A stretch of DNA of 64,000 nucleotides, taken from positions 7,781 through 71,780 of the IMG/VR virus record IMGVR_UViG_3300025530_000010, one strand, 5' to 3'. Below are positions 11,498-62,342 of this stretch, piece after piece (positions within the stretch are counted from its first letter, which is position 1; every line of letters begins with the position of its first letter). Made by a program: the position numbers and the translations under genes. Under the pieces are notes generated by a model. That model was given only the letters and a program-made list of their open reading frames with translations. It searched no databases and was not told the origin of the DNA. The stretch comes from a virus (lineage: Duplodnaviria > Caudoviricetes).

Positions 11498-11546
11498 CCC
11501 AGTGCCTCCTCCCCATTTCTGGGTCCGCACAGCGGCCCTGACAGCC

Positions 11547-21834: not shown

Positions 21835-23373
21835 TCAGATGGCCTGCAGGGTGTTGGACGAACCGCCGAAGGCGCCGGTCGCCATCATCGCCGGGGTGCC
21901 GATACCACCGGCCGAGCTGAAGTCGGCCATATTGGCGGTGTCGCCGAGCGAGATCTCGCCGCTGGTCAGGCTGATGCCGAACCGGACGACGATGTAGTTC
22001 AACGGGAAGGCGGGCTGCCAGCTGAACGTCACCTCGATGACGTCCGGGTTCGTCTTGAGCTGGCGGACCTTCAGGCTCGCGTAGTCGACCAGCAGGCCGT
22101 CGCGCAGCAGGCTCTGCAGGGCCGCCTCGACCGAGGCCTTGACGTTGACCAGCGTGTAGTCGTAGATCGGCTGGCCGATCAGCTTGGCCGACTCCAGGTA
22201 GTCGCGGATCCGGTAGGTCAGCGCGTCCTGCTGGCCGGTGACCGACCACTCGCGGCTGATCAAGTCAGTCGGGTCGGTCGTCACCCCGTGGCGGACCCGC
22301 ACGATCTGGCGGCGGGTCTTCTCGACCACCATCAGGCCGTTCTGGCTCTCCAGGCTCTTTTCGCCCTCGCGCAGCATCTCGCCGATGTCGGACCAGCCAG
22401 TGATGCGCTTGTGAGTCAGCGGCTGGGCGAAGCTCATCGACACCGTCATACCCGCCAGCGATGCGGCCATGAACTGCCCGCCGAGCACGATCTCGTTGTT
22501 CAGCTCCGGGGCGTAGTACTTGAAGCTCGCCGGGCTGACCAGGGCGACGCGGTTGCTCGAGAGGTTCTGGGCGTTGAGGATCCGCTGCGCCGACGGTACC
22601 GGCGTGACGGTACCGTCCATGCCGACGATGGCCCGGCGCTCGAAGCGGTTCTCCGACTGCGAGATGACATGCTGGTAGACCAGCTGGTGGATCGGCTGCT
22701 GGCCGGTGCAGGGCACGACGATGGCCACGCGCGGCTGGTCCCGCAGCTTGTTGAGCGCGTCCTCGTAGTCGCTCATGCCCGCTGTGCTGCCCGGCCCGGT
22801 GGGCTTGACGGCCACGCACACCAGTTCGCTGGCGCCGTTCATCATGGCGAAGCGGGCGCCGAGGGTCAGCTCGGACTGGATCTCGCCGGTCGTGGTATTG
22901 AACGGCGCGCCGTAGTAGGCCTGGACGTCCTCGTAGTCGTAGAGCATCTGCGGGTCGAAGTAGCTCGGGTCGGTGTACTGGTAGGACACCTGCACGATCT
23001 GACCCGGCTGAATGTGACCGCCGTTGATGACCCGCGAGATGGTGTAGGTGGCGTTGTTGGTGCCGATGGTGCCGTCGAGGTGCACGATGGTGTAGTCGGT
23101 ACCCTGGACGTAGACCTCGCCGGTGTTGGGGTTGCGCACCTGCAGGGTCGCGGTGTTGATACCCTGCTGACCGAGGGTGCGGTTGACCGCTGGGGTCTCC
23201 TCGTCGGTGTCGGGGTTGATCATCAGCGACTCGACCGCCGTGCGGTAGCCGATGGCGACACCAAACAGCGCCACGGCTGTGGGCATTGAGGGGTTGACTG
23301 CCAGCTGTGGCCCCTGGATCGTCTCGGTGTAGACGCCGGGAGGCAGGTAGCGGCTAAGGTCCACTGCGGCCAT
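21835..23373 (-). CDS. contractile tail sheath protein
   Basis: YLPPGVYTETI N-terminus; ERRAIVG, LTHKRITG, IEVTFSWQPAFPLNYIVVRF C-terminus typical of sheath proteins. Confidence 0.95.
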   Translation of the reverse strand: MAAVDLSRYLPPGVYTETIQGPQLAVNPSMPTAVALFGVAIGYRTAVESLMINPDTDEETPAVNRTLGQQGINTATLQVRNPNTGEVYVQGTDYTIVHLDGTIGTNNATYTISRVINGGHIQPGQIVQVSYQYTDPSYFDPQMLYDYEDVQAYYGAPFNTTTGEIQSELTLGARFAMMNGASELVCVAVKPTGPGSTAGMSDYEDALNKLRDQPRVAIVVPCTGQQPIHQLVYQHVISQSENRFERRAIVGMDGTVTPVPSAQRILNAQNLSSNRVALVSPASFKYYAPELNNEIVLGGQFMAASLAGMTVSMSFAQPLTHKRITGWSDIGEMLREGEKSLESQNGLMVVEKTRRQIVRVRHGVTTDPTDLISREWSVTGQQDALTYRIRDYLESAKLIGQPIYDYTLVNVKASVEAALQSLLRDGLLVDYASLKVRQLKTNPDVIEVTFSWQPAFPLNYIVVRFGISLTSGEISLGDTANMADFSSAGGIGTPAMMATGAFGGSSNTLQAI

Positions 23374-35622: not shown

Positions 35623-35637
35623 CCCTAACCTCCTCGC

Positions 35638-35669
35638 CTATTCCTCATTGGGAGGGGCGGGCATACAGG
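35638..35669 (-). promoter_or_regulatory. putative late promoter (polyvalent protein)
   Basis: CCTGTA-N18-AGGAATAG then GAGGAGG SD. Confidence 0.7.
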
Positions 35670-35690
35670 CTCCCGTCTCTATAGGCCAAT

Positions 35691-35719
35691 TTGCATGTAT
35701 CTATAAAAACTGCTATGAT
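35691..35719 (+). promoter_or_regulatory. strong SigA-like promoter, leaderless
   Basis: TTGCAT-N17-TATGAT with extended TG; ATG 6 nt after the -10. Confidence 0.85.
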
Positions 35720-35725
35720 AAAGAC

Positions 35726-36967
35726 ATGAACGCCACCGAGATCCGCAAGACCCAGGTTCACGAATGGACCCTCCCGGCCTACAACCTGCGCCGGTTCGAG
35801 GCCAAGGTCGAGCAGGCCAACCGCAGGCTCGCCCGCGCCGGGCTCAACGCCAGCTTCGACGTCGCCTACGAGCGCTACAACGTCACCCGCAAGGGCAACA
35901 ACGGCGAGACCATCACCGAGCCGTGGGTGCGGGCGACCCTGAACGGCCCGCTGCGCATCGCCGCCGGGCACTACACCTTCGTCGCCAACCTGGTGCCGGA
36001 GGAGGCGGGCATCACCGTCCACACCGCCCCCGGCCAGGAGCTGGGCGGCTACGAGCCGCGCGGCGACTTCGAGTGCGAGCACTGCAAGATCGCCCGCGCC
36101 CGCACCCGGCTGTACCTGGTGCGTGACAACCGGGACGGCCGGATCATCCAGCTGGGCCACAACTGCATCGAGCTCTACACCGGCGTGGCTCCCAAGGGGC
36201 TGTGGGCCCTGACCTACGACGAGGAGCTGACGGCGGTGGCCGACGAGGACGGCGAGTGGTCGGCCAGCCCGTGGGCCCGCACCGCCGACGTCGACTGGGT
36301 GCTGGCCTACGCCTGGGCCCACAGCGACGAGGGCCGGGCCTACGTCCCCTCGGAGGCCTACGAGATCTCGACCGCGACCCGGGTGCGCACCTCGCTGTTC
36401 CTGTCGATCGCCCACCTGTCCAAGCCGGAGCAGACCTACTACGCCGAGATCGCCAAGAAGGCCCTGGGCTTCTTCAACGACAAGGAGCTGCTGGCGGCCA
36501 TCAAGGCCGGTGTCGAGGCCACCAGCCCGAACACCGACTACGGCCGCAACCTGCGGGTGCTCCTGGCGGGCGAGCGGGTCTCGGAACGCAACGTCGGCCT
36601 GCTGGCCAGCCTGGTCAAGGTCTTCGCCAAGGAGCAGGAGCGCCGCGCCGAGCAGGCCGCCAGCCCGGCCGCCGAGGGCTTTATCGGCGAGGTCGGCCAG
36701 CGGCTGCGGAACCTGGCGATCCAGCTGACCGCCGTGCGGAAGTTCGAGGGCGCCTACGGCCCCACCACCCTGTTCGTCGGCCGGACCGCCGACGGGCACG
36801 TGATCAAGTGGTTCGCCAGCGGCAACTACCGCCACCAGCCCGGCAACACCCTGTACCTGCAGGCGGCCACGGTCAAGGCCCACGAGCACTACCAGGGCGA
36901 GGACCAGACGGTGATCACCCGGGGCAAGATCGACCCCGAGCTGACCCGCCAGGAGCTGAATCGGTAA
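35726..36967 (+). CDS. conserved phage protein with Zn finger and C-terminal OB-fold-like domain (413 aa)
   Basis: CEHCKIARAR...LGHNC; GPTTLFVGRTADGHVIKWFAS...ATVKAHEHYQGEDQTVITR OB-like tail; start set at the leaderless ATG 35726. Confidence 0.8.
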   Translation: MNATEIRKTQVHEWTLPAYNLRRFEAKVEQANRRLARAGLNASFDVAYERYNVTRKGNNGETITEPWVRATLNGPLRIAAGHYTFVANLVPEEAGITVHTAPGQELGGYEPRGDFECEHCKIARARTRLYLVRDNRDGRIIQLGHNCIELYTGVAPKGLWALTYDEELTAVADEDGEWSASPWARTADVDWVLAYAWAHSDEGRAYVPSEAYEISTATRVRTSLFLSIAHLSKPEQTYYAEIAKKALGFFNDKELLAAIKAGVEATSPNTDYGRNLRVLLAGERVSERNVGLLASLVKVFAKEQERRAEQAASPAAEGFIGEVGQRLRNLAIQLTAVRKFEGAYGPTTLFVGRTADGHVIKWFASGNYRHQPGNTLYLQAATVKAHEHYQGEDQTVITRGKIDPELTRQELNR

Positions 36968-47966: not shown

Positions 47967-48273
47967 CCTCCAGGACACCAATCGTCTCGGTCACCTCGCC
48001 GTCGACCGGGGCGACCGGGCTGGTCGCGCAGTAGTCGTAGGCGATCGTGACATCTTCGTTTCGGGTGGCCCATCTATAGTGCCCCAGAAATTCGTTTTTG
48101 GGAAAATGCAAGCGGTCGGCGAGCGCGGCCAGCAGCGCCACAACCTTGGCGCGGCCGGTGTCGGTGGACAGGTCCAAACCCGCGTACTGGTCCCAGACGA
48201 TGGTGCCGTCGGGCAGCTGCAGCCCGTACCGAACCCTGGTGTAGCGGTCGGTGCCCGCCTCGATCAGTCCCAT
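47890..48273 (-). CDS. hypothetical protein (127 aa)
   Basis: GGGAG SD overlapping the portal 3' end; 3' end overlaps the next ORF. Confidence 0.55.
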   Translation of the reverse strand: MGLIEAGTDRYTRVRYGLQLPDGTIVWDQYAGLDLSTDTGRAKVVALLAALADRLHFPKNEFLGHYRWATRNEDVTIAYDYCATSPVAPVDGEVTETIGVLEDGDDQGAAAEDHARAVRPGHLGGTA

Positions 48274-50699
48274 ACCGGCGTGTCTCCCGTGATCTCCTCG
48301 TACTGGCGAAGCATCTCCTCGAGCAGCTGGGCGGATTCCGGCGCCCCACCGGCGGCGATCTCGGCGAAGTCGGCGCGGATCTGGCTCTCCAGGTGGCCGA
48401 GGTTGAGCATCTGGTAAAAGGCCGGGTCCTCGACCAGCTCACGCACGCGCGGCACCGGATGCCGGGCAGTCAGCTCGCGGCGGCGCACGGCCCGCTCGAC
48501 GTGGGCACGGTCGACGGTGGCCGAGTGGCCGTAGCTGGACGGGCCGCGCTGCAGCCAGGTGGCGCCCGGGTCGGCCTCGCCGATGGCCACCCGCAGCCCG
48601 GTGCGGCTCTTGGAGGCCATGCGCGGGGCCCCGGCCCGCATCTCGTCGGAGATCTCCGGGCGGGCCCGGTTCACCGGCTGCTCGGGCGGCAGCGGCTCCT
48701 GCGGCGGCCCGGGCTGCCCGGCCGGGGCGGGCCCGGGCGCGGGGGCACCGCCGGGCGGCGGCGTTGGCGGCAGCAGCCCGAGCTGTCCGGCCGGGGTCAT
48801 CTGCTGCTGCTGCTGCTCGAGCATGTCGGCCTGCGCCTCGGCCATCTCGGTCCCGGCCAGCTGCTGGCGCAGCATCAGCGTCTGCTGCAGGTAGGCGATG
48901 AGGTCCGGCGGGTACGGCATCTGCTGCTCGTACGGCCGGGTGGCGTTCATCGAGTCGATGATCTGCTTGGCCTTGCTCATCGCCTGGGCCTGGGCGACCA
49001 GCTTGTTGACGGTCTCCTCGGACTGGCGCTGCAGCTCCAGGTCGAAGTCGATCTGCTGATTGATCGCCAGGGTCTTGTCCGAGATCGGCACGCCGGAGGC
49101 CTTCAGGTCGGCGATGAAGGCCCGCTCGGTCTGCTCGTCGCGCAGGTTGAGGCTGCGGAACCGGATCTGCGGGATCAGCAGCTGCGGCACCTCGACGACC
49201 TCGGACTCGCCGGTCTCGGGGTCGATCCGCTGGATCTTGCGCATGATGGGCACCCGCAGGTTGCCCTTGCGCTCGTAGGCATAGAACTCCTGGGCCTCGG
49301 CGACGACCTCCATGCGCTTTTTGATGTGCCTGACCACCTTGCGTTGGAAGTCCTTCATGTTCAGCTCGCACACCTCGCGGTTGAGCGCCGAGGAGGCGTA
49401 GGTCCCGGCCGCTGCGGTGCCGCCCATGATGAGGGCCTGGCCGATGCCCCAGGCCTGCATCAACTTCATGTCGATGCGGTCGTAGTCCTGGTCGAAGCGC
49501 GGAACCGACTCGCGGCCGAAGACGCTCTCGATCTTCAGGCCCAGGTGGTGGACCATGAGTTTGAAATCCGCCATGAGGGCGGCCTGCATGTCGTCTCGGA
49601 CGGCGGCCAGCTCGTCGGGGGTGGGGATCCATGGCTCGCCGTCGCCCATGTCCGGAATGCCAAGGGTGGCAAGGACAAACGGGCTGTAGAGCCGGTCGGC
49701 CACCGCGTCCTGGGCGGCGTTGAGGCTCTCCTCCATCAGCAGGGTGCGGAAGCTGCGCATCAGCGGCGGCACGCCGCGCAGGTCCCACGGGCTGATCTTG
49801 TTGACGATGCGGCTCCACAGGGCCTCGGAGATGTCCAGGCCGTCGTCCTGGTTGGCCGCCTCGATGATCTCCGGGTGATGACTGAGCAGCTGCTGGTATT
49901 CCCAGTTGCGCTGCATCTGTTCGGATTTGGTCTCCCTGCCGCTGCCCGGCGGGGTGCGCAGGTTCTCCACCAGCTGCTTGACCATCAGCTGCACGCGCTC
50001 CTGGGAGACGAACGCGCTCTTGCTGACCCGGATGTAGTCGGGATTGAGCACCTCCTCGTCGGCCCAGGTGCCCAAGGACTCATCGAAGTGCCCCAGGGTG
50101 GTCACCTCGCCGGAGATGAAGTACTCGCGGCCGAGCTCGTTGGGCAGGAAGTTCTCGTAGTCCAGGTCGTCAAGGAACATCTTGGAGAAGAAGTCCTCGA
50201 CCTTCTTGTCGTCGCAGACGAATTCGAGGCCGGTGACCGGGAACCGGGCGTAGATGTCGATCAGCAGCGGCACCAGGTCGTGGGTGGCGTAGTAGGCCCG
50301 CGCCCAGCGCCGGGCCTCCGACAGCACCTCGGGGTCCTCGATCTGAATCGGGATGCCCTTGTCCTTGAGCGTGCCGAGGGGCTCGCGGGCCTTGGGCATG
50401 GCCAGCAGCACGTCCGAGGCGGTGTGCTGGGTGGAGGCCAGGCGGCGCATGTTGTCCGCGCGCACTCGGCGCATGTGGGCCTCGACGTTGCGGACGGTGT
50501 CCTCCAGCGACCCGGTCCTGACGGTCTCGGCGACCTTCTTGGCCTCAACCCGGGCCTGCACAGGCGAATTCGGCAACGCATAGCCAGCCTGGCGCAGCCG
50601 GTTCATCTCGGCGGTCAGGTTGGACACCTGCAGGCCCGATCGGGTGCGGCCCCGCCGGTCGATGACCGGGAAGCTTGGGGTGGATTCCTCGGAGCTCAT
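48264..50699 (-). CDS. portal protein with C-terminal extension
   Basis: YYATHDLVPLLIDIYARFP, REYFISGEV, RGVPPLMRSFRTL, IPQIRFRSLNLRDE; position before the head genes. Confidence 0.88.
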   Translation of the reverse strand: MSSEESTPSFPVIDRRGRTRSGLQVSNLTAEMNRLRQAGYALPNSPVQARVEAKKVAETVRTGSLEDTVRNVEAHMRRVRADNMRRLASTQHTASDVLLAMPKAREPLGTLKDKGIPIQIEDPEVLSEARRWARAYYATHDLVPLLIDIYARFPVTGLEFVCDDKKVEDFFSKMFLDDLDYENFLPNELGREYFISGEVTTLGHFDESLGTWADEEVLNPDYIRVSKSAFVSQERVQLMVKQLVENLRTPPGSGRETKSEQMQRNWEYQQLLSHHPEIIEAANQDDGLDISEALWSRIVNKISPWDLRGVPPLMRSFRTLLMEESLNAAQDAVADRLYSPFVLATLGIPDMGDGEPWIPTPDELAAVRDDMQAALMADFKLMVHHLGLKIESVFGRESVPRFDQDYDRIDMKLMQAWGIGQALIMGGTAAAGTYASSALNREVCELNMKDFQRKVVRHIKKRMEVVAEAQEFYAYERKGNLRVPIMRKIQRIDPETGESEVVEVPQLLIPQIRFRSLNLRDEQTERAFIADLKASGVPISDKTLAINQQIDFDLELQRQSEETVNKLVAQAQAMSKAKQIIDSMNATRPYEQQMPYPPDLIAYLQQTLMLRQQLAGTEMAEAQADMLEQQQQQMTPAGQLGLLPPTPPPGGAPAPGPAPAGQPGPPQEPLPPEQPVNRARPEISDEMRAGAPRMASKSRTGLRVAIGEADPGATWLQRGPSSYGHSATVDRAHVERAVRRRELTARHPVPRVRELVEDPAFYQMLNLGHLESQIRADFAEIAAGGAPESAQLLEEMLRQYEEITGDTPVWD

Positions 50700-51073
50700 C
50701 GGCTATCGACCTCCAGATCGGCCGGGACGCGGCGCAGGCATCGCTCGGGATACCAGCCCTGCTCGGGTGCGTTCTCGTCGGCTGGCTCGTCGATCACCAC
50801 CCGGAACATCGGGATCACCGGCGTGCCACCGTGTTTGAGGTCGAAGGAGACATCCTGGACAGTGCCGACCCCATCGTAGATCTCACCGGCGGTGTAGGCC
50901 TGCACCCGGTCCCCCGCCTTGAACGGGATGGTGGCGGACAGGAATTGCATGGCCCACACCGCCGTTGCGATCGGCAGGGACTGCACGCACGTCGCGCAGT
51001 AGCCCCGCTCAACCGAGTCGACGTAGATGATGTCCCTCAGATCCTTGCACCCGAAGCACAGGCGCTTGGTCAC
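50696..51073 (-). CDS. Zn-finger plus SH3-like hypothetical protein
   Basis: CFGC...CATC; FKAGDRVQA...GVGTV; GTGA/ATGA couplings. Confidence 0.7.
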   Translation of the reverse strand: MTKRLCFGCKDLRDIIYVDSVERGYCATCVQSLPIATAVWAMQFLSATIPFKAGDRVQAYTAGEIYDGVGTVQDVSFDLKHGGTPVIPMFRVVIDEPADENAPEQGWYPERCLRRVPADLEVDSR

Positions 51074-53382
51074 TCATCCTCCTCGCCGGAGTCCTCGCGA
51101 TCATCCTCGTCGTCGTCCGAGTTGTCTTCGGCGACTTTGCGATTGGCGGTCCAGCGCCCGGCCGGATCGCGCTTGGCCCAGTCCTTGGGGGCCTTCTTCA
51201 TCGTGGGGGTGCCGGGATCCTGGCCGTCCTCGGGTTCGGTGCCGCCCGGCTGGGTGATGTCGTGCAGGGCGGCCTCGCGGGCGGTGTAGGCCTCGGCGAC
51301 GAATCTGGCGAAGTCATCGCCAGTACCGGTCCTGCCGGAACCGGGGGCTGCCTTGGACGCGACGATCACGTTCTCGCGCACCGGGATCTCCCGCACCAGG
51401 TAGCGCGATGCGCTTGCCTCGTGACGGTCGCCGCCGGTACCGATGACGTAGCTGTTCCACTGCTTGCCGCAGGCGCAGCGGTGGAAGCCGCTCGGGGCAC
51501 TGAATTCATGACCGCAGGAGCAGGCGAATTTCTTTGGGGCACTAGCGACATGCGCCATCAGGTAGTCGTCCCACTCCCAGCCGTCGACGGTGTGGCCGGA
51601 GTTGTCGACAGCGGCGGTCCTGATGGCCGCCTCGTGCTCCTGGGTGGTGGTCGGGTTGAGGTGCTTCTTGAGCTTCTGCAGGGCCCGGGGGCCGACCTTG
51701 ACCTCCTCGACGAACTGGTCGATGTCGGCCTCGGTGCCGGTGGGCAGGCTGCCGCGCTGCGGCTGCTTGCGCTGCCACTGGTCGAACTTGGTCAACACAT
51801 CGCCCTTGCGTTGTTTCTTGCCCTTACCGGCGGCCGTGCGGGTCGGGGGGACGGGATCCGGCAGGGTCTCGGCGTAGGCGATCGCGTCGGTGTAGTTCTC
51901 GAACGGGCCGTAACGAATATCGCTGGGGAACTTGCCGGGCCGAAGAATGTAGCCCCCATTTACGGCGCTGGTGACGTCCCAGGTGCCGTTGGTGATGAGG
52001 TGGTAGTCGAGATCCAGGTTCTGCCGCCAGCCCGGGGCAACCTCATCCCAGGGGTCGTGGCGGCGCCGACCAGGACCGTACTCCCAGATGTCGTCGTACC
52101 CGTAGGGGTCTTCGTGGGGAGTCATGAACCGCATGCCGTCAGCGGTCTTGTGGCGGCTGGCCATCATCATCTGCGGCGGCACCCCACCCATCGCGGCCGG
52201 ATCCATCGGCGGCATCCCGCCACCCATCGCGGCCGGATCCATCGGCAGCCCACCGGCCGGGGCGCCGCCCTGGGCGCCGGTGCCCTCCGGCATGACGTTG
52301 ATCTGGCCGCCCGGCATGACACTGAAGGGGGCGTTGGCCTGCTGCTCGGCGAGGGCCTGCTGAACGATCACCAGGGCCTGCTGCAGCGGCGCGATGCTTT
52401 CCTGAAACTCCTCGGCCTTCTGATTGAGCAGACCAGTCAGGGCGTCGTTGGCCTTCTGCAGGTAGTCCGGCGCGGCGGTGATCAGCCGCCGGTCGAACGC
52501 ACCGGCCTTGGCCAGGCGCTGCATGGTCCCGGCGACCTTGAAGTAGGTGTCGGTCGGCAACTTGGCCGCGAAGCGGTCGAGGGCGTCGAGGGTCGGCGCG
52601 ACCCGGGCCTTGCGGCACCAGGCCAAGAACTGGCGGGTCACCGCCGAGGCCTTGAGGTTTCGCTGCACAAGCCCCCAGAAGGCTTCCGGCGAAACCGCTT
52701 GATCGAGGTACTGGGCAGCACGGTCGGGACCGGGGTAGTCACCGAGGGGGTAGGGTCCGACGTGCTCACCGAGCGCCTTGACGATGCCGTCGATATCGAA
52801 ATCGGAGGCCTGATCCCCAAGTGCCTCAAGGACATAGCGCTGCAGGTCACGGTCGGTGATGATGCCGTTGGCTCGCTTGGTCCGACCACCCTTCTTGGCG
52901 AAGTCGGTGTCGTCCGGGTCCTTGGTGTGCTCGGTGCCCTCGCCGGTGAACAGGTGGTCGACCTTACTCTCGGCGTCCTGGTCGACGCGGTCGAGGTAGC
53001 CCTTGAAGTCGCCCTCTGGCTTCAGCGGCCCGTCACTCGAGACGAAGGTCGACTCGACCTCGACGATCTCGACCTTCTTGTCGCCGTTCTCGGCGATCTT
53101 GGTGGTAGCCCGCCAGTCACGCTCGAGTTGGGCGCAGATGCGCCGCATGATGCCCTTGCGCGGCGGGACGCCGTTGCGGACGACGATGTCGCGGATGTCC
53201 CGCTTGGCCAGTGCCACACGGTTGCGAAACTCGGAGACCGACTTGGCCCCCCGCAGGAAGGGGCCGACCTGCTGGTCGACGTCGTAGATCGCTGCGGCCA
53301 GTTTATCGGCGGCGATCCGCTGCTGGCGCTGCCGTTCGGTCTCACCCGCCGCCGCCACCTCGAAAATGCCGATGTCGCTCAC
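51070..53382 (-). CDS. 770-aa modular head-region protein with Zn ribbon
   Basis: GAGGAG SD; modules separated by KIA/KRA/KTA/RTAA; CSCG...CACG ribbon. Confidence 0.8.
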   Translation of the reverse strand: MSDIGIFEVAAAGETERQRQQRIAADKLAAAIYDVDQQVGPFLRGAKSVSEFRNRVALAKRDIRDIVVRNGVPPRKGIMRRICAQLERDWRATTKIAENGDKKVEIVEVESTFVSSDGPLKPEGDFKGYLDRVDQDAESKVDHLFTGEGTEHTKDPDDTDFAKKGGRTKRANGIITDRDLQRYVLEALGDQASDFDIDGIVKALGEHVGPYPLGDYPGPDRAAQYLDQAVSPEAFWGLVQRNLKASAVTRQFLAWCRKARVAPTLDALDRFAAKLPTDTYFKVAGTMQRLAKAGAFDRRLITAAPDYLQKANDALTGLLNQKAEEFQESIAPLQQALVIVQQALAEQQANAPFSVMPGGQINVMPEGTGAQGGAPAGGLPMDPAAMGGGMPPMDPAAMGGVPPQMMMASRHKTADGMRFMTPHEDPYGYDDIWEYGPGRRRHDPWDEVAPGWRQNLDLDYHLITNGTWDVTSAVNGGYILRPGKFPSDIRYGPFENYTDAIAYAETLPDPVPPTRTAAGKGKKQRKGDVLTKFDQWQRKQPQRGSLPTGTEADIDQFVEEVKVGPRALQKLKKHLNPTTTQEHEAAIRTAAVDNSGHTVDGWEWDDYLMAHVASAPKKFACSCGHEFSAPSGFHRCACGKQWNSYVIGTGGDRHEASASRYLVREIPVRENVIVASKAAPGSGRTGTGDDFARFVAEAYTAREAALHDITQPGGTEPEDGQDPGTPTMKKAPKDWAKRDPAGRWTANRKVAEDNSDDDEDDREDSGEEDE

Positions 53383-53545
53383 CAGGCGCTCCTCGTGTAG
53401 GTCGTTCCTCTACGATTTCTCGGCCCAAAGCGGCGGGATGACAGACCCGGCCTGGGCCGGGGAGTCCCCATCTGGCAGCAGGGACACTCGCGGATCGCCA
53501 GAGTCGGGCAGCGGTAGTAGGCGCCGCAACGGTCGCAAAACAGAC

Positions 53546-53848
53546 TCAGGATGCTGCCCGGCGCATTCGGCGCCGGGTCGTCGGGGTTGCTCCGGTACAC
53601 AGGGACCTCACCAGTTCTTCGGGATCAGGGGCGGGAGTCGCCGGACGTTCCGGGCGGGCCTGCACCTGCAGTGCCCGGATGGCCTCGTCGAGCTGTTCGG
53701 CCGTGACCCGGAAGGTCCGCCCGACCTTGATGGCCGGAATGGTGCCGTCCTGAATGCGGCGCAGAACCCAGCGCTCGGGCGCCCGAAGGCTGTCGCCGCA
53801 GAGAATGGCCGCGACCTCGGAGATGCTGTAGGTCCGACGGCCGGTCAC
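53546..53848 (-). CDS. excisionase-like HTH protein
   Basis: TYSISEVAAIL...IQDGTIPAIKVGRTFRVTAEQL (MerR/HTH_17 type); GTGA overlap with the cro-like gene. Confidence 0.8.
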   Translation of the reverse strand: MTGRRTYSISEVAAILCGDSLRAPERWVLRRIQDGTIPAIKVGRTFRVTAEQLDEAIRALQVQARPERPATPAPDPEELVRSLCTGATPTTRRRMRRAAS

Positions 53849-54126
53849 GACACGGCCGCCGGATCGTTCTTCAGGTCGTCGCGCGGATCGGCGACGAGCT
53901 GCGCCACCAGCTGGGAGACGGGGACGTCGAAAACGCGCGACAGGGCGGCCAGCATGCGGATGGAGACGAGGCCGCCCCAGTCGCCGTCGAAGGCGCGGTA
54001 GACGGTGGTCTCTCCAATGCCCGGGAGGCGCCTGGCAAGCGAGGCCCGGTCGCGGATGCCGTGGGCGGACATGAACTTGGCCGTCGCCTCCTGCTTCCAC
54101 CGAAGCACCTGAACAAGATCACTCAC
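53845..54126 (-). CDS. Cro-like XRE HTH protein
   Basis: RASLARRLPGIGETTVYR HTH; divergent from the repressor. Confidence 0.75.
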   Translation of the reverse strand: MSDLVQVLRWKQEATAKFMSAHGIRDRASLARRLPGIGETTVYRAFDGDWGGLVSIRMLAALSRVFDVPVSQLVAQLVADPRDDLKNDPAAVS

Positions 54127-54256
54127 ATCATCAGAGGATAGCGGCTGGCTTCCATTTTTGGCACTCAGACACCCGAATCGGAACGCCGGTTTCAGTTATG
54201 GCACCCGCCCCTGGAAGTCTTTTGCGTTTTCAATATTGACATTTATGCAGGTCATC

Positions 54257-54302
54257 GGTTGCATCTCATTGGTTGCATCATTTTCAAAACTGGCAGTACA
54301 TT
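54257..54302 (+). promoter_or_regulatory. repressor promoter with direct-repeat operator candidates
   Basis: GGTTGCATC at 54257 and 54271; TTGCAT(54273)-N18-TACATT(54297); ATG 6 nt after the -10. Confidence 0.65.
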
Positions 54303-54308
54303 GGTGCC

Positions 54309-54674
54309 ATGCCCAGACAGACCAGACAGGGGCGAAGCCTCAAGCGAGTGTTGGAGTGGGTCCTCAACCGAGACGTGCTCGACATCGAGATCGCCGCTGC
54401 ACTCGGCAAGCCTGCGGCCACCTTCTCAAGACGGCACCGGGCCCCGGACTTCCCGACCTGGGAGGAGCTCGAGCAGATCGGCGAGCACTTCGCCATCAAT
54501 CCGCGCTGGTTGCAGGTCGAATTCGGCTTCCTGGAGGTCGCCGAGGTGGACGAGCATGGGCGTCTGCGCATGCAGCCCCCCATCACCCCCGTCAAGAAAG
54601 AGATTGGTCAGGCAGGGATCGCGGGCCTCCCTGTTCGCGATGATCGCCCGCCATTGGCTGCACCGCCCTGCTAA
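54309..54674 (+). CDS. immunity repressor-like HTH protein
   Basis: DIEIAAALGKPAATFSRR HTH plus DFPTWEELEQIGEHF...LQVEFG, resembling mycobacterial prophage repressors; leaderless start. Confidence 0.75.
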   Translation: MPRQTRQGRSLKRVLEWVLNRDVLDIEIAAALGKPAATFSRRHRAPDFPTWEELEQIGEHFAINPRWLQVEFGFLEVAEVDEHGRLRMQPPITPVKKEIGQAGIAGLPVRDDRPPLAAPPC

Positions 54675-55395
54675 GCAGCGACATGAATCCCGGCAGGTGC
54701 ACCAGGCATAGCAGTGATGTCGTGGCCAGTTTCATACCAAAAATCACGCTCTGGTGCACCGACACCGGCACCAGCCCCGGCACCAGCACTGTCACGCACT
54801 GCAGGGCCGAGGCCACCACACATACGACGCTGCAGATGAGGTAGGCGGCCGCGCTCACCCGGTTCCGCCCGTCCCGAATCAGAACCCGCAGTCCCTGCAT
54901 CGTGATCGTCGATAGGTGAATGAGCAGCAGCGCGAACAGCAGCCAGTAGGTCTGCAGCCACCTGTCCGGATCGACACCGACGAGGTTTGGGGCCTGGGGC
55001 CGGGCGGCCTCACTGATCAGGAAGACCCCCACCATCGTGGGGACCACCAGGGTCATCGGCACCACGCAGTAGCGGTGCATGTTGCGCCGGAAGGCCTCGT
55101 TGTTACCGAGGCGGCCCAGGACCGCGTACATGATCCCGGACTCGCCCGCCAGACAGCACAGGTGAGCGAGCAGATCCTCGAGGTTGCCCCGCCCGAACAG
55201 GGCCGCCACGGGCTCACCGATCACTGTCGAGGCCACCGGCGCTCCGAGCAGCAGCGCCATCGACTGCATGATGATGGCGAACGCTGTCACGCCATACCAG
55301 CGTGACAGCCGCATGGCTCGCCACAGGGCACGCAGCGACATGCTCGCCAGAGCAAGTTGGCAGGCAATGGCTAACCCCATCCCCGTCCCCATCAC
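54592..55395 (-). CDS. polytopic membrane protein (about 7 TM)
   Basis: successive hydrophobic segments; between repressor and integrase. Confidence 0.8.
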   Translation of the reverse strand: MMGTGMGLAIACQLALASMSLRALWRAMRLSRWYGVTAFAIIMQSMALLLGAPVASTVIGEPVAALFGRGNLEDLLAHLCCLAGESGIMYAVLGRLGNNEAFRRNMHRYCVVPMTLVVPTMVGVFLISEAARPQAPNLVGVDPDRWLQTYWLLFALLLIHLSTITMQGLRVLIRDGRNRVSAAAYLICSVVCVVASALQCVTVLVPGLVPVSVHQSVIFGMKLATTSLLCLVHLPGFMSLLSRAVQPMAGDHREQGGPRSLPDQSLS

Positions 55396-55493
55396 CCCTC
55401 ATACATCCCCGTTTTCCGGGGGCAAACCTTCTCCCCCGGATGTAAGTGCGATTACCCTACAACACCCCTTTCATACTTGCCAGAATTGCATCA

Positions 55494-56624
55494 TCAGAGC
55501 GTGGGCAGCATCTTGCCCAGGGCATCAGCGGCGTCTTCGAACGACGAGCGGTCAAGATGGCCGTAGACATCCATCGTCGTCTTGATGCTCTGATGCCCGA
55601 GGTGCTCCTGGACCACCTTCAGCGGCTTATTTGCTGCAATCAGCCATGAGGCGCACGTGTGGCGAAGATCGTGAATGCGCGGCGGGGGCTGCAGCCCGGA
55701 GCGGACCACCGCCGGGCGCCACACCCGGGAGTGGAAGCCGTGGATGCGCACCGGCCCCCCGGCCTGATTGACGAACAGCCACTCGTGGCTGTAGTCGAGC
55801 CGGTCGAGAAGCGACTTCGCGACGTTGATCGTCCGCAAACTCCTGCCCTTGGGCTTGACCAGCCGGTAGCCGTCGGCCGGGTTGTAGGTCCAGGCCCGGC
55901 GGATGCGCACCTGGCCGGTCGCGCGGTCGATGTCGCCGGGCCGCAGCGCGGCGGCCTCGCCCCACCGGCAGCCGGAGAGGACCAGGAACTCCACCAGCGG
56001 CCGCCAGTACTCAGGGACGGCCTTCAGCAAAATCTCGACGTCCTGTGGGGTCAGGAAGATCATCTCGTCGCCAGCCTCCAGGGGGTCGCCCTGGGGGAGC
56101 TTGGAGACGGCCGCCGGGTTGGCATCGATGTAGCGCGGCACGGCCTGGTTCAGTGCCCCGCTGAGAAAGCCGTGCTTGTTGCGGATTGTCTTGGCGCTGG
56201 CCGGTCGGCGCTTGCCGGTGTGCCGGTCGAGGGCTCCGTGCTTGCGCAGCCACAGCACCCAGTTGGCGATGTCCTCCGGCCGCAGCTGCCGCAGCGGGAT
56301 GGAGCCGATGACCGGGTCGATGTCGTTGCGCACGTACCCCATGTACTTCTCGGCCGTTCCGGGGTCGGCGACCAGGTGGTCGATGTAGTGGGTCAGATAC
56401 TCGGTCAGCGTCCAGTCGCTGGCGGCCGACGACGAGCGGCCCCGGTGCACACCGAGCATCTCCAGGGCCTTGTCGCCGCCGACGGCCTCGACGAGCTTCC
56501 GGACGTCCTCGGCCGACTTGCGGTCCTCGGTCGAATACGAGGTCTGGGTGCCGTCGGCGAGAGAGAAGACGGTCGAGAAATACACCGATCCGTCTTTGCG
56601 GGAGCGCTGTCGGATGAAGGCCAT
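55494..56624 (-). CDS. int: tyrosine integrase
   Basis: GCRWGEAAALR, IHDLRHTCAS, LGHQSIKTTMDVYGH (R-H-R-H-Y). Confidence 0.96.
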   Translation of the reverse strand: MAFIRQRSRKDGSVYFSTVFSLADGTQTSYSTEDRKSAEDVRKLVEAVGGDKALEMLGVHRGRSSSAASDWTLTEYLTHYIDHLVADPGTAEKYMGYVRNDIDPVIGSIPLRQLRPEDIANWVLWLRKHGALDRHTGKRRPASAKTIRNKHGFLSGALNQAVPRYIDANPAAVSKLPQGDPLEAGDEMIFLTPQDVEILLKAVPEYWRPLVEFLVLSGCRWGEAAALRPGDIDRATGQVRIRRAWTYNPADGYRLVKPKGRSLRTINVAKSLLDRLDYSHEWLFVNQAGGPVRIHGFHSRVWRPAVVRSGLQPPPRIHDLRHTCASWLIAANKPLKVVQEHLGHQSIKTTMDVYGHLDRSSFEDAADALGKMLPTL

Positions 56625-56648
56625 GCCCGGAGCCTAGCAGCGGATCTC

Positions 56649-56850
56649 ACTGACGGGAGACTGACCGCTGCGGTCCGGGCCGGTCCTTATGCCCTCTGAC
56701 CTGGGCTTTTGTCGTGGAGCTAAGGGGAATCGAACCCCTGATTTTCAGTCTCGAAACCGCCTCTGACCTGCGAATATAGGTTTCCTATGATCCTGACCGT
56801 GACTGACGGCGACGGACGCGACCTGGGAAAACCAGACGGCTCACTGACGG
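56649..56850. repeat. integrase arm-type repeats flanking the att core
   Basis: ACTGAC(G/C)G at 56649, 56660, 56802, 56843; CTCTGACCTG at 56694 and 56761. Confidence 0.65.
56715..56741 (-). other. attP core matching a tRNA-Ala 3' end
   Basis: minus strand TCAGGGGTTCGATTCCCCTTAGCTCCA = T-arm plus acceptor strand of a GGGGCTA-type tRNA-Ala; no 5' half present. Confidence 0.85.
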
Positions 56851-56909
56851 CGTCAGTCAGGAATCAGCGGAATTGGCCTAAAAAACAGATGTTTGCTGGA
56901 GGGGTGGGG

Positions 56910-57383
56910 CTAATGCCTCGGCTTCTTGACCAGATCGGCGAACTGGTCGGCCAGGGCGTTGTGGCGCTCCTGGGCGGTCAGCAGGCCCCGCTGAATGATC
57001 GACACCGACTCGTGCAGGGACTCGATGGCGGTGCCGTGGGAGCGCACCAGGTTGGTCAGGCCGTCGACTTTGGTGCCGATGTTGCTCAGGCTGCTGATGA
57101 CGCGGTCGAGGTCCTCGCGCAGTGAGGTGGGGGCGTTGCCGTGGCCGTTGATCACCTGGCCGGAGACGAGCTCGACGGCTTCACGCACGGTGCCGATCTC
57201 GCGCCGCATCGCCTGGTGCTGGTCGCGCATTCGGCGCTCCTGCTCGGCCCGCTTGCGGTCCTCGCGCTTGGTGCGGATCTGGTCGGCGGCGATCCAGCCG
57301 ACGATGACGATGATCAGCGCCAGCAACTCGTAGCCGGTGTCGATGCCGTTGGCGTTCAGCGGCGGCTCGGCCAGGGTCGTCAC
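56910..57383 (-). CDS. lysis-cassette membrane protein (DUF2746-like)
   Basis: single TM followed by coiled coil and VINGHG..SLREDLD motif; after lysin B. Confidence 0.65.
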   Translation of the reverse strand: MTTLAEPPLNANGIDTGYELLALIIVIVGWIAADQIRTKREDRKRAEQERRMRDQHQAMRREIGTVREAVELVSGQVINGHGNAPTSLREDLDRVISSLSNIGTKVDGLTNLVRSHGTAIESLHESVSIIQRGLLTAQERHNALADQFADLVKKPRH

Positions 57384-58486
57384 AGCAACTGCCCTCCTCG
57401 GTGGTTGAGCCAGTCGACGGCCCACTGCACAGCGGTCTTGCCGCCGTACACCGCGCGGTGGGGCGCGGCGTAGTTCATGTGGTCGTTGGAGCGGGCGAAG
57501 GCGATCAGCTTTGCGACGGTGCGGATCATCTTGGCCCAGCCCTGCGGGGTGCCGCCGGTGCCCGAGCCGGGCCGGTCGGGCAGCAGACCACCGGCCAGCG
57601 GCGCCAGTGACCGGGCCAGCGGCACCAGGCTCGCCAGGGTCGCCGAGGGGTCGCTCAGCAACGCCCCGAGCAGCCCGCCGCGCACCGGCGATCGGTTTGC
57701 CAGCAGGCGGTCCGAGCTCAGGCCGGTCAGCTCGTGGACGACGGTGCGCAGGCCGGTGAAGTCCGGCGGCAGCAGCTCGACGAGTGCGTCGACGAACTCG
57801 TCGCGCCGGATGAGCTCGAGCATGGCGGTCGCCAGCGCCATCGGGTCATGTAGCTGCAGGCCCGAGCCGGGGCGGTCGTAGTCCCCGGCCAGGGCGGCGT
57901 AGCCGATCCACAGGTAGTCCTGCTCGGGGTCGGCCGTGCAGTACATGTCGTCGTCGAGAGCAAACGTGATGTAGCGGCTGGCAAGGTGCGCTGGCAAAGG
58001 TGGCCTGCGGGCGATGCCGCCGCCGGGCGGGTGGTGGCCGACGTCGACGGTGCCGGAGAATCGACAGGGGTCACCGAAGGTGATGACGGCCAGCAGGTCG
58101 CGCTCCCGGTGGGCCAGCCGCCCGCCGGGCAGGAACTCCCGGGTCAGCTCGTAGGCGACCTGGGCGCCCTTGGAGAACCCGGCGATGACGAACTGGGCGT
58201 CGAGATCGGACAGGGCCTGCACGCCGGATGCGACGCCCTCGTGGACGGTCTCGATATAGCTGGGGGCACCCAGGGGGCCCTTGACCGGGCCGAACCACTG
58301 GCCGTAGTGGTTGTCGATGCCGGAGAAGGCGTGGGGGTTGAGGCCGCGCACCAGGTCTGCCTGAAAACCGGTGTCGGGGTCGGCCCAGGTGCCCGGGCAC
58401 TTGAGGACGGCGATGCGAAACAGCGGCAGGCCGTCGAGCTTGCGACAGAAGTCCTGCATCGTCGGCGCCCAGTGCAGTGGCCTCAT
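57380..58486 (-). CDS. lysin B-like alpha/beta hydrolase (cutinase/PE-PPE type)
   Basis: CPGTW, AGFSKGA nucleophile elbow, TFGDPCR, DDMY, DHMNY. Confidence 0.8.
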   Translation of the reverse strand: MRPLHWAPTMQDFCRKLDGLPLFRIAVLKCPGTWADPDTGFQADLVRGLNPHAFSGIDNHYGQWFGPVKGPLGAPSYIETVHEGVASGVQALSDLDAQFVIAGFSKGAQVAYELTREFLPGGRLAHRERDLLAVITFGDPCRFSGTVDVGHHPPGGGIARRPPLPAHLASRYITFALDDDMYCTADPEQDYLWIGYAALAGDYDRPGSGLQLHDPMALATAMLELIRRDEFVDALVELLPPDFTGLRTVVHELTGLSSDRLLANRSPVRGGLLGALLSDPSATLASLVPLARSLAPLAGGLLPDRPGSGTGGTPQGWAKMIRTVAKLIAFARSNDHMNYAAPHRAVYGGKTAVQWAVDWLNHRGGQLL

Positions 58487-58893
58487 GGCAGCAGCACCTC
58501 CTGCTCCTCGGGCAGTGTGCTGTGCCGGGCCGGGTGGAGCCAGGCGTGGCCGCAGGCGCAGAGCCGCTCGAACGGCCAGGGGTTGTCCAGGGCGGTGATG
58601 CGCACGTCGTGGGCGCCGTGGCGGCCGCAGGCCGGGCAATCGGCCTGGGCGGCGACGACGAAGCGGCGCCAGTGCCGGTGGGAGTCGGGGGCGAACATGC
58701 GCCGGTGGCTGCCGACGACGCGCAGCAGGACGTTCTCGACCCGCTCCGGCAGCTGCAGGACGTCACCGACGTACAGGTCGTCGATGGGCTGGGCGATGTG
58801 TCTGGTGCCCGCCCAGTACATCGGCCAGCGCACACCGTTGCGGCGCAGTCCACCCGTCCGGGTCAGCGGCCCGGTCGCAACCCCGGCGATCAT
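58483..58893 (-). CDS. Zn-finger hypothetical protein
   Basis: CPACG...CACGH; ATGA couplings at both ends. Confidence 0.65.
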   Translation of the reverse strand: MIAGVATGPLTRTGGLRRNGVRWPMYWAGTRHIAQPIDDLYVGDVLQLPERVENVLLRVVGSHRRMFAPDSHRHWRRFVVAAQADCPACGRHGAHDVRITALDNPWPFERLCACGHAWLHPARHSTLPEEQEVLLP

Positions 58894-60073: not shown

Positions 60074-60394
60074 TCAGGGGGCCTCGCGCTCGATCTCGGC
60101 GCGCAGCCCCTCCTCGATTCGCCTGATGGACTCGGCGAGACTGTCGATGCACCGCCGGGCGGCCTTGATCTTCTGGGCGATCGCCTGGCTGCGATCCTTG
60201 GCGCTCTTCAGCGCCTCGGCGACCTCCTCGACCGCCCACAGCGGGATGTACACGCGCTGGGCAGCTCTGCCCTTGGACCGCTGGGGGTGGTAGTCGAGCC
60301 GCAGGGAGTGGGTGTCGGCGTCGAAGCCGATCTCGAGCACGGTGTCGCTGTAGAGCTCGATAGTCGACAGCGCGGCGTAGTCGGGCAGGGTCAT
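60074..60394 (-). CDS. hypothetical coiled-coil protein
   Basis: ATGA overlap with the HIT gene. Confidence 0.7.
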   Translation of the reverse strand: MTLPDYAALSTIELYSDTVLEIGFDADTHSLRLDYHPQRSKGRAAQRVYIPLWAVEEVAEALKSAKDRSQAIAQKIKAARRCIDSLAESIRRIEEGLRAEIEREAP

Positions 60395-60762
60395 TGGGCT
60401 TTCCTGCGCCCCCGCCTCTTCGGGGCGCTCCAGGGCAGCGCCAGGCCGTCGCTCTCGCGTCGGGGCACGATATGCAGGTGGGTGTGCCGCACGGTCTGGG
60501 TGGCGGCCGGGCCGACCGAGGTGATGATGTTGGCCTCGATGCCCCGGTGGCGCACGTAGGAGGCGGCCACCTGCACCAGGGCTGCGGCCTGCACCGGGTC
60601 GTCGGCGGCGCTTTCGGTGTGGGTGGCGCCGATGACGAGCACGTGCCCCTCGGTGACGGGGTCGAGCGGGTTGATGATGGCGATGTCGCGGCCGTCGACG
60701 GCGGTCTGCAGGACGATGTCGAGGCCGGACCAGTTGTCGCGGCAGAAGGGGCAGTCGTGCAC
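60391..60762 (-). CDS. HIT-family nucleotide hydrolase
   Basis: CPFC...GHVLVI...QTVRHTHLHIVPR histidine triad. Confidence 0.92.
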   Translation of the reverse strand: MHDCPFCRDNWSGLDIVLQTAVDGRDIAIINPLDPVTEGHVLVIGATHTESAADDPVQAAALVQVAASYVRHRGIEANIITSVGPAATQTVRHTHLHIVPRRESDGLALPWSAPKRRGRRKAQ

Positions 60763-61286: not shown

Positions 61287-62342
61287 TCAGTTGGCAGTCA
61301 ACAGCTTCCAGGCCCGGTGCTTGAGTCCCGTCTCGGTGGTGGCGTGCAGCAGGGTCCGGGTCGCCCGGGCGATGTCGGCCATGCCGCCGCCGCCACGGAC
61401 GGGGGCGTAGTGATCGACGTACTCGGTGACCGCGCTGTAGGCGCCGAACCGGGTCCCGGCGATCGGGGTGCCGGAGATGGTCGGGCTGGAGACGAACAGG
61501 TCGCGGATGGCGGCGGCCTCGTTGCGGCGCCGCGCCAGCGCCGTGCTGGAGGCGCCGACCTCCTCGGTGGCCAGCAGCTCCTCGAGGAACTCGTCGAGGT
61601 CGGCGGTGCCGAACGGCTGCTCGTAGAGCGCCCGGGCCTGCTCCTCGAAGGCCTGCTCGTAGTCCCAGGCGATCCTGAGCTGCTCGCGGGCGACCTGCAC
61701 CGAGCTGCGCCAGCCGCTGGTGTGCGGGATGGCAAACCGGCTCTTGGCGCCCTGGATCGCGGCGGCGGCGGTGTTGGCGCAGACCACCCGCACCGAGGTG
61801 ATCACCCCGAACAGCGCCGAGCTGCCGTCATGGCTGTTGAACAGGGCCAGGTACCACTCGCTGATGTCCTCGGTGCCGTCGAGGCCGACGAACTTCAGCT
61901 CGCGCGGGAGCTTCATCGTCAGAAAGACCTTGCGGTAGCCGTAGAGGCTCCCAGCGGTCTCGTAGTGGGCACCGGACTCGTCGACCAGGGCGTCGGCGAA
62001 CTCGACCAGGGCCTCGTTCTGAATCGGGGTGTAGCGCTTGCCGACCACGCCGATCGGGGTGAGCCTGCCGGTGACCGGGTTGTTGAAGACGGTCACGTAC
62101 TGGTCGGGCACCTCGACGTACTTGTCGACGCCCTCACCCTGGTCGTCGACGCCGAGGTTGGCGTAGACCGGGCGCTTGCGGACGTTCCAGTTCGCCAGCA
62201 GGGCCGCCTCCAGGGCTTCCTTGGCGGTCATGGCGTGGCCGACCGGCTGGCCGAGCTGGTGCCAGGCGTCGGTCTTGCCGTTGCGGGTCCGCGAGTCGGC
62301 GTAGCTGTAGATGCCGTTGGTCTGACTGATCTGGTGTCCCAT
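61287..62342 (-). CDS. DUF932-family phage/plasmid protein
   Basis: DAWHQLG, YTPIQNE, YETAGSL, NSHDGS, VRVVCANT, GTRFGAYSAVTEYVDH. Confidence 0.9.
   Translation of the reverse strand: MGHQISQTNGIYSYADSRTRNGKTDAWHQLGQPVGHAMTAKEALEAALLANWNVRKRPVYANLGVDDQGEGVDKYVEVPDQYVTVFNNPVTGRLTPIGVVGKRYTPIQNEALVEFADALVDESGAHYETAGSLYGYRKVFLTMKLPRELKFVGLDGTEDISEWYLALFNSHDGSSALFGVITSVRVVCANTAAAAIQGAKSRFAIPHTSGWRSSVQVAREQLRIAWDYEQAFEEQARALYEQPFGTADLDEFLEELLATEEVGASSTALARRRNEAAAIRDLFVSSPTISGTPIAGTRFGAYSAVTEYVDHYAPVRGGGGMADIARATRTLLHATTETGLKHRAWKLLTAN

Follow-up and report, generated by a model that had tools for sequence, protein, structure and literature searches.

A Cluster AA-type lysogeny cassette between the lysin B and portal genes of an uncultured actinobacterial myovirus

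Two cultured Cluster AA mycobacteriophages, Phrappuccino and Settecandela (genus Phrappuccinovirus), are reported to be temperate, with very turbid plaques and high-frequency lysogeny (PMC8263002), and the sheath protein of Phrappuccino has been placed among the closest relatives of the sheath of the myovirus phage G (PMC8570332). In its GenBank record, Phrappuccino carries lysin B (34), three small genes, integrase (38), gp39, gp40 on the opposite strand, gp41 ('transcriptional repressor'), gp42 ('excisionase') and gp43, followed by gp44 (779 amino acids), gp45 and the portal gene (46), with the tail sheath and baseplate wedge genes later in the genome; the Settecandela genes for integrase and the gp40 homologue have coordinates identical to those of Phrappuccino. 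Here we describe a lysogeny cassette of the same kind in a 64,000-nucleotide stretch of viral DNA (hereafter the window, meaning the whole stretch analysed), which comprises bases 7781–71780 of the linear 71,780-bp IMG/VR virus record IMGVR_UViG_3300025530_000010 and has a GC content of 67.7%. The window is very probably an attP-configuration fragment of an uncultured large actinobacterial myovirus of the Cluster AA lineage, a lineage that gained a lysogeny block of the type found in Cluster K phages and Mycobacterium abscessus prophages. An original prediction, made from the letters alone, had taken cultured myoviral mycobacteriophages to be lytic; this is contradicted by Phrappuccino and Settecandela, both temperate (PMC8263002), the former with a sheath gene.

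Filtering open reading frames (ORFs) by GC content at third codon positions (GC3) assigns nearly all window genes to the minus strand, on which the order is lysin B, membrane protein, attP, integrase, polytopic membrane protein, divergent repressor, cro, xis, Zn-ribbon ORF, a 770-amino-acid protein, DUF7245 protein and portal. The candidate repressor gene, on the plus strand, is the sole exception to the minus-strand direction of the cassette, and all seven cassette ORFs are open and intact. Cassette order, orientation and junctions are those of Phrappuccino. The collinearity extends well beyond the cassette: in a tblastn comparison of window ORFs with Phrappuccino (NC_054727, L001), 44 of 62 were matched in order from gene 10 to gene 99, with a length-weighted identity of 57.8%. 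At the nucleotide level the relationship is more distant, as megablast with a 10-kb query covered ~5% at 77% identity. The ICTV genus rule is ~70% nucleotide identity over the genome, and because the megablast result falls below it, we place the window phage in a separate related lineage and not in the genus Phrappuccinovirus itself. A Mycobacterium-like (mycolic-acid) host is suggested by the lysin B gene and by cassette proteins whose affinities are all mycobacterial.

The tyrosine integrase (376 amino acids; 55494–56624, minus strand) matches PF00589 with 81.6 bits (curated cut-off 27.1), as well as PF14659 and phrog_1. It shares 60% identity with the Phrappuccino and Settecandela integrases, and its nearest phage relatives outside Cluster AA are the integrases of Cluster K phages and M. 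abscessus prophages (~49%). Residues R220, K259, H318, R321, H344 and Y354, which by their motifs appear to be the catalytic ones, are invariant across 14 homologues. Metagenomic integrases that are 55–67% identical to that of the window occur on contigs of 55–145 kb; those at 61–67% (P0002 and P0009) are encoded by contigs of 111–145 kb. Scanning viral contigs with the integrase alignment recovered only siphovirus-sized contigs at ≤51% identity, and with integrase P0009 only an unrelated 28% match; scans of metagenome contigs with integrase P0009 and with the repressor alignment gave no matches.

Directly upstream of the integrase gene lies attP, a 285-bp non-coding stretch (56625–56909, minus strand; GC 58.6%) with a 28-nt core (56714–56741, minus strand) that resembles the T-arm and acceptor 3′ strand of a tRNA. 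Searching IMG/VR for exact copies of the first 27 core nucleotides returned 10 loci: in six, a complete tRNA-Ala gene (anticodon CGC or GGC) has the string as its 3′ end, and in the remaining four it stands alone, as an att site would. The tRNA-Ala target that had been predicted is thereby confirmed at sequence level, the core being the tRNA-Ala 3′ end. Because the window and the tRNA genes part ways upstream of the core, the shared core is ~28 bp long. Its orientation is that of a tRNA-targeting phage, in that integration would rebuild the tRNA beside int. Repeats flank the core on both sides in the manner of arm-type integrase sites, as three exact pairs of 10–11 nt (56646–56656 and 56840–56850; 56693–56703 and 56760–56770; 56802–56811 and 56843–56852). 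Both the core and the majority of the arm motifs can be aligned to the Phrappuccino region between gp37 and integrase; the Phrappuccino core differs at several positions, and its string likewise ends tRNA-Ala genes wherever it lies within a full tRNA. Another locus (L111) has an integrase gene 90 bp after a tRNA-Ala gene, its product being 44% identical to the window integrase; we read this as an integrated relative at a tRNA-Ala-type site. Rfam searches of the attP region gave a sole match, an 18-nt T-arm-level hit to transfer-messenger RNA (tmRNA), and ARAGORN found no complete tRNA gene in the window, as expected because attP holds only a partial tRNA copy. Since lysis genes, attP and int are contiguous, the DNA was assembled in its unintegrated form. 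A separate IMG/VR record (L133; IMGVR_UViG_2865597299_000001) carries the Phrappuccino-type tRNA-Ala core twice in direct orientation, at 1152–1172 and 11441–11461, 10.3 kb apart; the first copy is part of a complete tRNA-Ala(CGC), and the pair looks like the attL and attR of a small integrated element.

Between the integrase and repressor genes lies a gene for a polytopic membrane protein of 267 amino acids (54592–55395, minus strand; phrog_950) with five to seven hydrophobic segments, 28% identical to Phrappuccino gp39 and 29% identical to gp5 of the M. abscessus prophage prophiGD03-1. It has a weak, sub-threshold match to the MAB_1171c family, and searches of PADLOC, NCBIfam and Protein Data Bank sequences with this protein and the small ORFs returned nothing above threshold. 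Its gene converges on that of the candidate immunity repressor (121 amino acids; 54309–54674, plus strand), and the two overlap 3′-to-3′ by 83 nt (54592–54674). The same convergent overlap measures 62 nt in Phrappuccino (L001 22583–22644) and 29 nt in prophiGD03-1 (L028 4249–4277), which hints at transcriptional interference or antisense control. The candidate repressor is 60–65% identical to Phrappuccino gp40, which bears a UniRef label legible only as 'Immunity rep...'. Its matches are confined to Cluster AA gp40, the prophiGD03-1 gp6 'immunity repressor' (36%) and the gp43 'immunity protein' of two M. chelonae phages, Aegeus and Baudelaire (32%).

The repressor gene (from 54309, plus strand) and cro (from 54126, minus strand) diverge from a 182-bp control region (54127–54308; GC 47.8%). 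The Cro-like helix-turn-helix (HTH) protein (93 amino acids; 53845–54126, minus strand; phrog_1702, E = 1.8e-21) is 49% identical to Phrappuccino gp41, and its 368 phage matches are all from mycobacteriophages, including annotated Cro proteins of Cluster K phages; in many, a gene annotated 'Cro protein' is followed by 'excise'. The excisionase (100 amino acids; 53546–53848, minus strand) matches TIGR01764 with 32.7 bits (curated cut-off 28.8) and phrog_1840, and is 52% identical to Phrappuccino gp42. Towards the repressor gene, the control region holds a cluster of three 12-nt repeat copies (54253–54264, 54267–54278 and 54299–54310); two lie within exact 14-mers unique in the window and one overlaps the repressor ATG, and we regard them as candidate operators of uncertain role. 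The best-conserved element between the window and Phrappuccino is a 15-nt block at 54147–54161, which overlaps the −35 hexamer (54158–54163) of a putative cro promoter whose −10 hexamer (54135–54140) lies 8 nt ahead of the cro GTG. In both phages this block is followed at equal spacing by a TANNNT hexamer (54135–54140 in the window), then 7–8 nt, then the first codon of Cro, as would be expected if cro mRNA were leaderless. As a 6+6 inverted repeat that overlaps the −35 position, the Phrappuccino version of the block is a candidate operator. The repressor ATG of the window, likely a leaderless start, has a TANNNT box 6 nt before it. The proposed switch promoters were read by eye; a scan with the sigma-70 consensus found no promoter within the switch. 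We also note that the annotated start of Phrappuccino gp41 (L001 23047–23388) is probably ~16 codons too far upstream, because the extension covers the conserved non-coding element, where the frame is closed in the window; an ATG at ~23096 lies 7 nt past a TANNNT box.

Beginning with cro, six genes form a single co-directional run from 54126 to 48264. After cro and xis come a Zn-ribbon-like CxxC...CxxC ORF (73 amino acids; 53379–53600, minus strand), the 770-amino-acid protein (51070–53382, minus strand), the DUF7245 protein (50696–51073, minus strand; PF23897, 155 bits) and the portal protein (48264–50699, minus strand; phrog_2833, E = 4e-297). Start–stop overlaps of 4 bp (GTGA or ATGA) join cro to xis (GTGA), the Zn-ribbon ORF to the 770-amino-acid gene, the latter to the DUF7245 gene and that gene to portal; the overlap between xis and the Zn-ribbon ORF is 55 nt. 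Between cro and the end of the portal gene the minus strand showed no terminator-like site, and the RNA fold at the junction from xis to the 770-amino-acid gene is no better than that of shuffled sequence (z = −0.49). The Zn-ribbon ORF has a GC3 coding signal and shares a CDRCG...C..C motif with Phrappuccino gp43, which occupies the same position; it matched no family in searches of Pfam, PHROG, NCBIfam and other collections. DUF7245 precedes portal in all related loci whose sequence extends upstream of that gene, and the portal protein is 70–72% identical to that of Phrappuccino and 57% identical to those of Bxz1-type phages. These results uphold the earlier proposal that the cro–xis unit points into virion genes.

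The same proposal had called the 770-amino-acid gene, towards which this unit points, the first head gene. The 770-amino-acid protein (phrog_2922) is mosaic relative to its homologues, with homologous segments in Phrappuccino gp44, Bxz1 gp87, Stormageddon gp8/9, E3 gp70 and an IMG/VR relative (L008), and E3 gp70 is annotated with the note 'structural protein'. A role as first head gene is plausible, and the product is probably a virion component. A terminase was considered and rejected: the protein has no Pfam match, its only family match (phrog_2922) is of unknown function, and it does not match the annotated terminase gene of Finch. A major head gene is also present further along the window.

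We infer the promoters, the operators, the role of the repressor and read-through from sequence features, and they suggest the following mode of action. In a lysogen, the 121-amino-acid repressor would be made from a leaderless plus-strand transcript and would bind the 12-nt repeats and/or the conserved element over the cro promoter, keeping that promoter off. Integrase would recombine the 28-nt core with the 3′ end of the host tRNA-Ala, rebuilding the tRNA. Infection or induction would set off a leaderless cro transcript, which would begin ~8 nt past the TANNNT box, carry cro, xis and the Zn-ribbon gene and, given the coupled gene ends and the lack of a terminator, continue into the virion and portal genes. 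Such read-through is expected to yield basal early expression, and the bulk of virion expression would need further late promoters or factors. The cassette, made up of attP and the genes for integrase, membrane protein, divergent repressor, Cro, excisionase and Zn-ribbon protein, was very probably inserted exactly between the lysin B and membrane-protein genes on one side and the block of virion-protein, DUF7245 and portal genes on the other.

Because nothing separates xis from the virion genes, the cro transcript should run into them, yet adjacency need not amount to regulatory wiring. It is a serious possibility, if somewhat less than an even one, that the transcript is ended or processed by Rho or RNase before the 770-amino-acid gene and that the late genes have separate promoters: scans for intrinsic terminators are weak evidence in high-GC actinobacteria, Phrappuccino gp130 is a putative sigma factor that could drive late genes, and high early expression of portal seems wasteful. 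The gene ends from cro to portal nevertheless overlap, mostly by 4 bp, leaving no intergenic space and showing no hairpin, U-tract or unusual fold, and the arrangement has been kept across ~58% protein identity between the window and Phrappuccino. The strongest form of the wiring, in which AA-like myoviruses enter the virion operon mainly or solely through a leaderless cro promoter under repressor control, seems to us unlikely. If it were true, a single repressor–operator contact would shut off both excision and head morphogenesis, and late genes would come on at induction without an intervening early cascade. We know of no experimental demonstration of cro-promoter-to-virion-operon wiring in a large temperate myovirus.

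How a lysogeny block came to lie at this position is indicated by relatives with and without it. The block of 770-amino-acid, DUF7245 and portal genes is common to Bxz1, Finch, E3, Stormageddon and IMG/VR relatives. A PF00589 search of nine related myovirus records (the cultured Bxz1, Finch, Stormageddon and E3, four IMG/VR genomes that are 97–100% complete, and one 37-kb fragment) found no tyrosine integrase; the same survey recovered integrase from Phrappuccino and from 14 of 14 control genomes. Portal phylogeny, proposed earlier as a check, places the cassette-bearing pair among integrase-less lineages: in the maximum-likelihood tree the window and Phrappuccino group with support of 100/100 and are nested with the integrase-less 180-kb L008 at 100/99, and the E3, Finch/Stormageddon and Bxz1 groups fall outside this clade. 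In L008, the nearest relative without an integrase, a lysB-like gene, two genes for transmembrane proteins and a 60-bp gap are followed by a homologue of the 770-amino-acid protein with an aligning N-terminus, an arrangement that we interpret as the empty site of the cassette.

The cassette genes themselves have counterparts in siphovirus-sized phages. In the 54.8-kb M. abscessus prophage prophiGD03-1, identities are 49% for integrase, 29% for gp5, 36% for the repressor, 36% for Cro and 31% for the excisionase, and the order is int, gene 5 overlapping convergently the repressor gene 6, two HTH genes and early genes, among them one that is RecE-like. Validus, a Cluster K phage of 62.5 kb, has the layout int, repressor, Cro and excise, as in the window, with identities of 49% (int), 42% (cro) and 34% (xis). 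The gene-by-gene homology to prophiGD03-1 (five genes) and Validus (int, cro and xis), the integrase-less relatives, the nested position on the portal tree and the L008 site bear out the proposal that a lytic myovirus lineage acquired the cassette as a block. The most economical reading is that the ~3.5-kb block was gained once, by the ancestor of the window phage and Phrappuccino. It was thus acquired before the two diverged and is not recent, in keeping with the near-average GC of the cassette genes.

The original prediction had also offered an undescribed temperate myovirus group, with a novel connection from switch to head genes, as an explanation. The window phage is indeed distinct from cultured ones, given the megablast result and the ~58% mean protein identity to Phrappuccino, and our literature search found no paper treating the arrangement of cro and xis ahead of a virion gene. 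We nonetheless consider this explanation very improbable, as close temperate myovirus relatives with the same cassette at the same junction are already described: the arrangement is in GenBank for Phrappuccino, Settecandela has its integrase and repressor genes at the same coordinates, and both phages are published as temperate, Phrappuccino having a sheath gene. That the record, a metagenome-derived fragment whose cassette resembles siphoviral ones, is an assembly chimera of a siphoviral prophage cassette and a myovirus contig has next to no probability, because the lysB-side/attP junction and the junction of xis, Zn-ribbon and 770-amino-acid genes recur in Phrappuccino with alignable attP flanks and overlapping gene ends. 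The recurrence of both junctions in an independently sequenced cultured phage excludes the misassembly that had been raised. A decaying remnant in a phage that is lytic in practice would accord with the odd place for a switch and with a scan of genome contigs for portal genes, which found no integrated copy. We judge such decay very improbable, as the seven ORFs are open, the presumed catalytic residues are conserved, all 28 positions of the attP core agree with tRNA-Ala, the arm repeats are paired, and the closest cultured relatives lysogenise at high frequency (PMC8263002).

Several observations weigh against the assignment of the window to the Cluster AA lineage with a gained, working switch. 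The source record is a fragment (CheckV completeness ~47%), and the genome-contig scan for portal recovered only a 2.2-kb fragment from a metagenome-assembled genome (MAG) and no integrated prophage of the lineage. In the portal tree, the root sits on a very long branch to the outgroup, and L009–L011 are fragments from which integrase-less status is not readable. The GC content of the cassette genes is near average (int, 67.3%, against 67.7% for the window), and the two control regions are AT-richer; composition was discarded as a sign of foreign origin, since the GC dip stems from intergenic regions and not from genes. The 12-nt repeats lie 90–150 bp upstream of the putative cro promoter and are not conserved in Phrappuccino. 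The candidate repressor has no Pfam, PHROG or HTH-family match, its AlphaFold2 model (7 sequences) has a predicted local distance difference test score of 55, too low for a fold search, and the repressor call leans on position and on 32–36% identity to annotated repressors.

Other genes of the window complete the picture of a contractile-tailed phage. Sheath, baseplate, repressor, cro-like gene, xis, integrase and attP were all found at or near where the original prediction had placed them, the tube role being assigned by position. The tail sheath (21835–23373, minus strand; phrog_2839, E = 2e-209) is 70% identical to Phrappuccino gp73 'tail sheath' and scores just under the cut-off for Pfam Phage_sheath_1. 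The virion protein encoded directly after it (21333–21803, minus strand; phrog_2756; 84% identical to Phrappuccino gp74) would, by this position, be the tail tube. Baseplate genes encode a Baseplate_J-like wedge protein (9315–11081, minus strand; PF04865, 88 bits; phrog_6) and a further baseplate protein (11081–11530, minus strand; phrog_2669). On the other side of the cassette, lysin B, a cutinase-like esterase (57380–58639, minus strand), is 62.5% identical to Phrappuccino gp34, matches the endolysin family phrog_102 (E = 1.8e-38) and scores below threshold for Pfam Cutinase; it is the last enzyme gene ahead of attP. Between them, a 171-amino-acid protein (56910–57425, minus strand) has one transmembrane segment in a hydropathy scan and a coiled-coil tail. 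It occupies the place of Phrappuccino gp35–37, which are membrane proteins by their translated sequences, and may by position be holin-like. The idea that attP separates lysis genes from structural genes holds for lysin B and the membrane protein upstream; no lysin A was found in the window.

Further observations concern neighbouring genes and related contigs. A HIT-domain protein (60391–60762, minus strand) and a DUF932 protein (61287–62342, minus strand) are encoded upstream of the lysin B region, and tblastn matched neither within the first 100 kb of the Phrappuccino genome. An intact TnpB/IS605 OrfB gene (12236–13342, plus strand; PF01385, PF07282 and PF12323; phrog_506, E = 3e-139) lies inside the tail and baseplate block between homologues of gp82 and gp83, which are neighbours in Phrappuccino; the gp83 homologue has 195 amino acids in the window and 412 in Phrappuccino. 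A plus-strand ORF of 552 amino acids (35309–36967), with a GC3 like that of coding DNA (0.94), overlaps the 5′ end of a minus-strand gene for a 1748-amino-acid protein and has neither a Pfam match nor a Phrappuccino homologue; it is perhaps a shadow ORF arising from the high-GC strand. The MAG fragment from the portal scan (L006; JBASXE010000434.1), binned as Roseovarius, carries DUF7245 and a portal 57% identical to that of the window; this portal groups with Bxz1-type actinophages on the portal tree, and the contig is probably a mis-binned phage fragment.

By its gene content, the window phage appears to be of an already known kind (Cluster AA), the record adding an uncultured relative. The temperate Cluster AA myoviral lineage thus reaches into uncultured diversity with the same cassette and junction. 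The locus is also an example of modular evolution, with a siphovirus-type lysogeny block between the lysis and portal modules, an empty site in a sister genome and a retargeted att site, of tRNA-Ala type where its relatives have a tmRNA-like core. The placement of cro and xis directly ahead of virion genes is unusual and is conserved between the window and Phrappuccino.

Compared with known systems, the window is closest to Phrappuccino and Settecandela, with which it shares a collinear genome, cassette order, attP arm motifs, a tRNA-Ala-type core and contractile-tail genes. Phrappuccino differs in its shorter control region, which lacks the 12-nt repeats, and the window in its TnpB insertion in the tail block and in a membrane protein that is merely 28% identical; lysogeny has been shown only for Phrappuccino and Settecandela. 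The lytic large actinobacterial myoviruses (Bxz1 and Cluster C, the Rhodococcus phages Finch and E3, the Gordonia phage Stormageddon, and L008) share with it the 770-amino-acid homologue, DUF7245, portal (53–65%), sheath and baseplate but, by the PF00589 search, have no tyrosine integrase.

Like the window, prophiGD03-1 and Cluster K phages such as Validus and ZoeJ have homologous int, repressor, cro and xis genes in the same order and orientation, and prophiGD03-1 also has the membrane-protein gene convergently overlapping the repressor gene; unlike it, they are siphovirus-sized (55–62 kb). Validus and prophiGD03-1 share with the window an AGGTCA(G/A)AG-type motif beside the att core, but their cores end in ...CAGCTCCAC, by eye presumably the 3′ end of a tmRNA, whereas that of the window corresponds to the tRNA-Ala 3′ end. 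In neither does the cro–xis unit lead into virion genes: in prophiGD03-1 it leads to small early ORFs and a RecE-like gene, and in Validus to small ORFs and a WhiB-family gene. The likeness to lambda CI and Cro is one of layout, a repressor gene and a Cro-like gene diverging from an AT-rich control region that contains repeated sites. In contrast to lambda, the genes after cro are xis and virion genes instead of replication genes, int is encoded upstream on the same strand as cro, the operators are candidates, and the proteins have no detectable homology to the lambda CI or Cro families.

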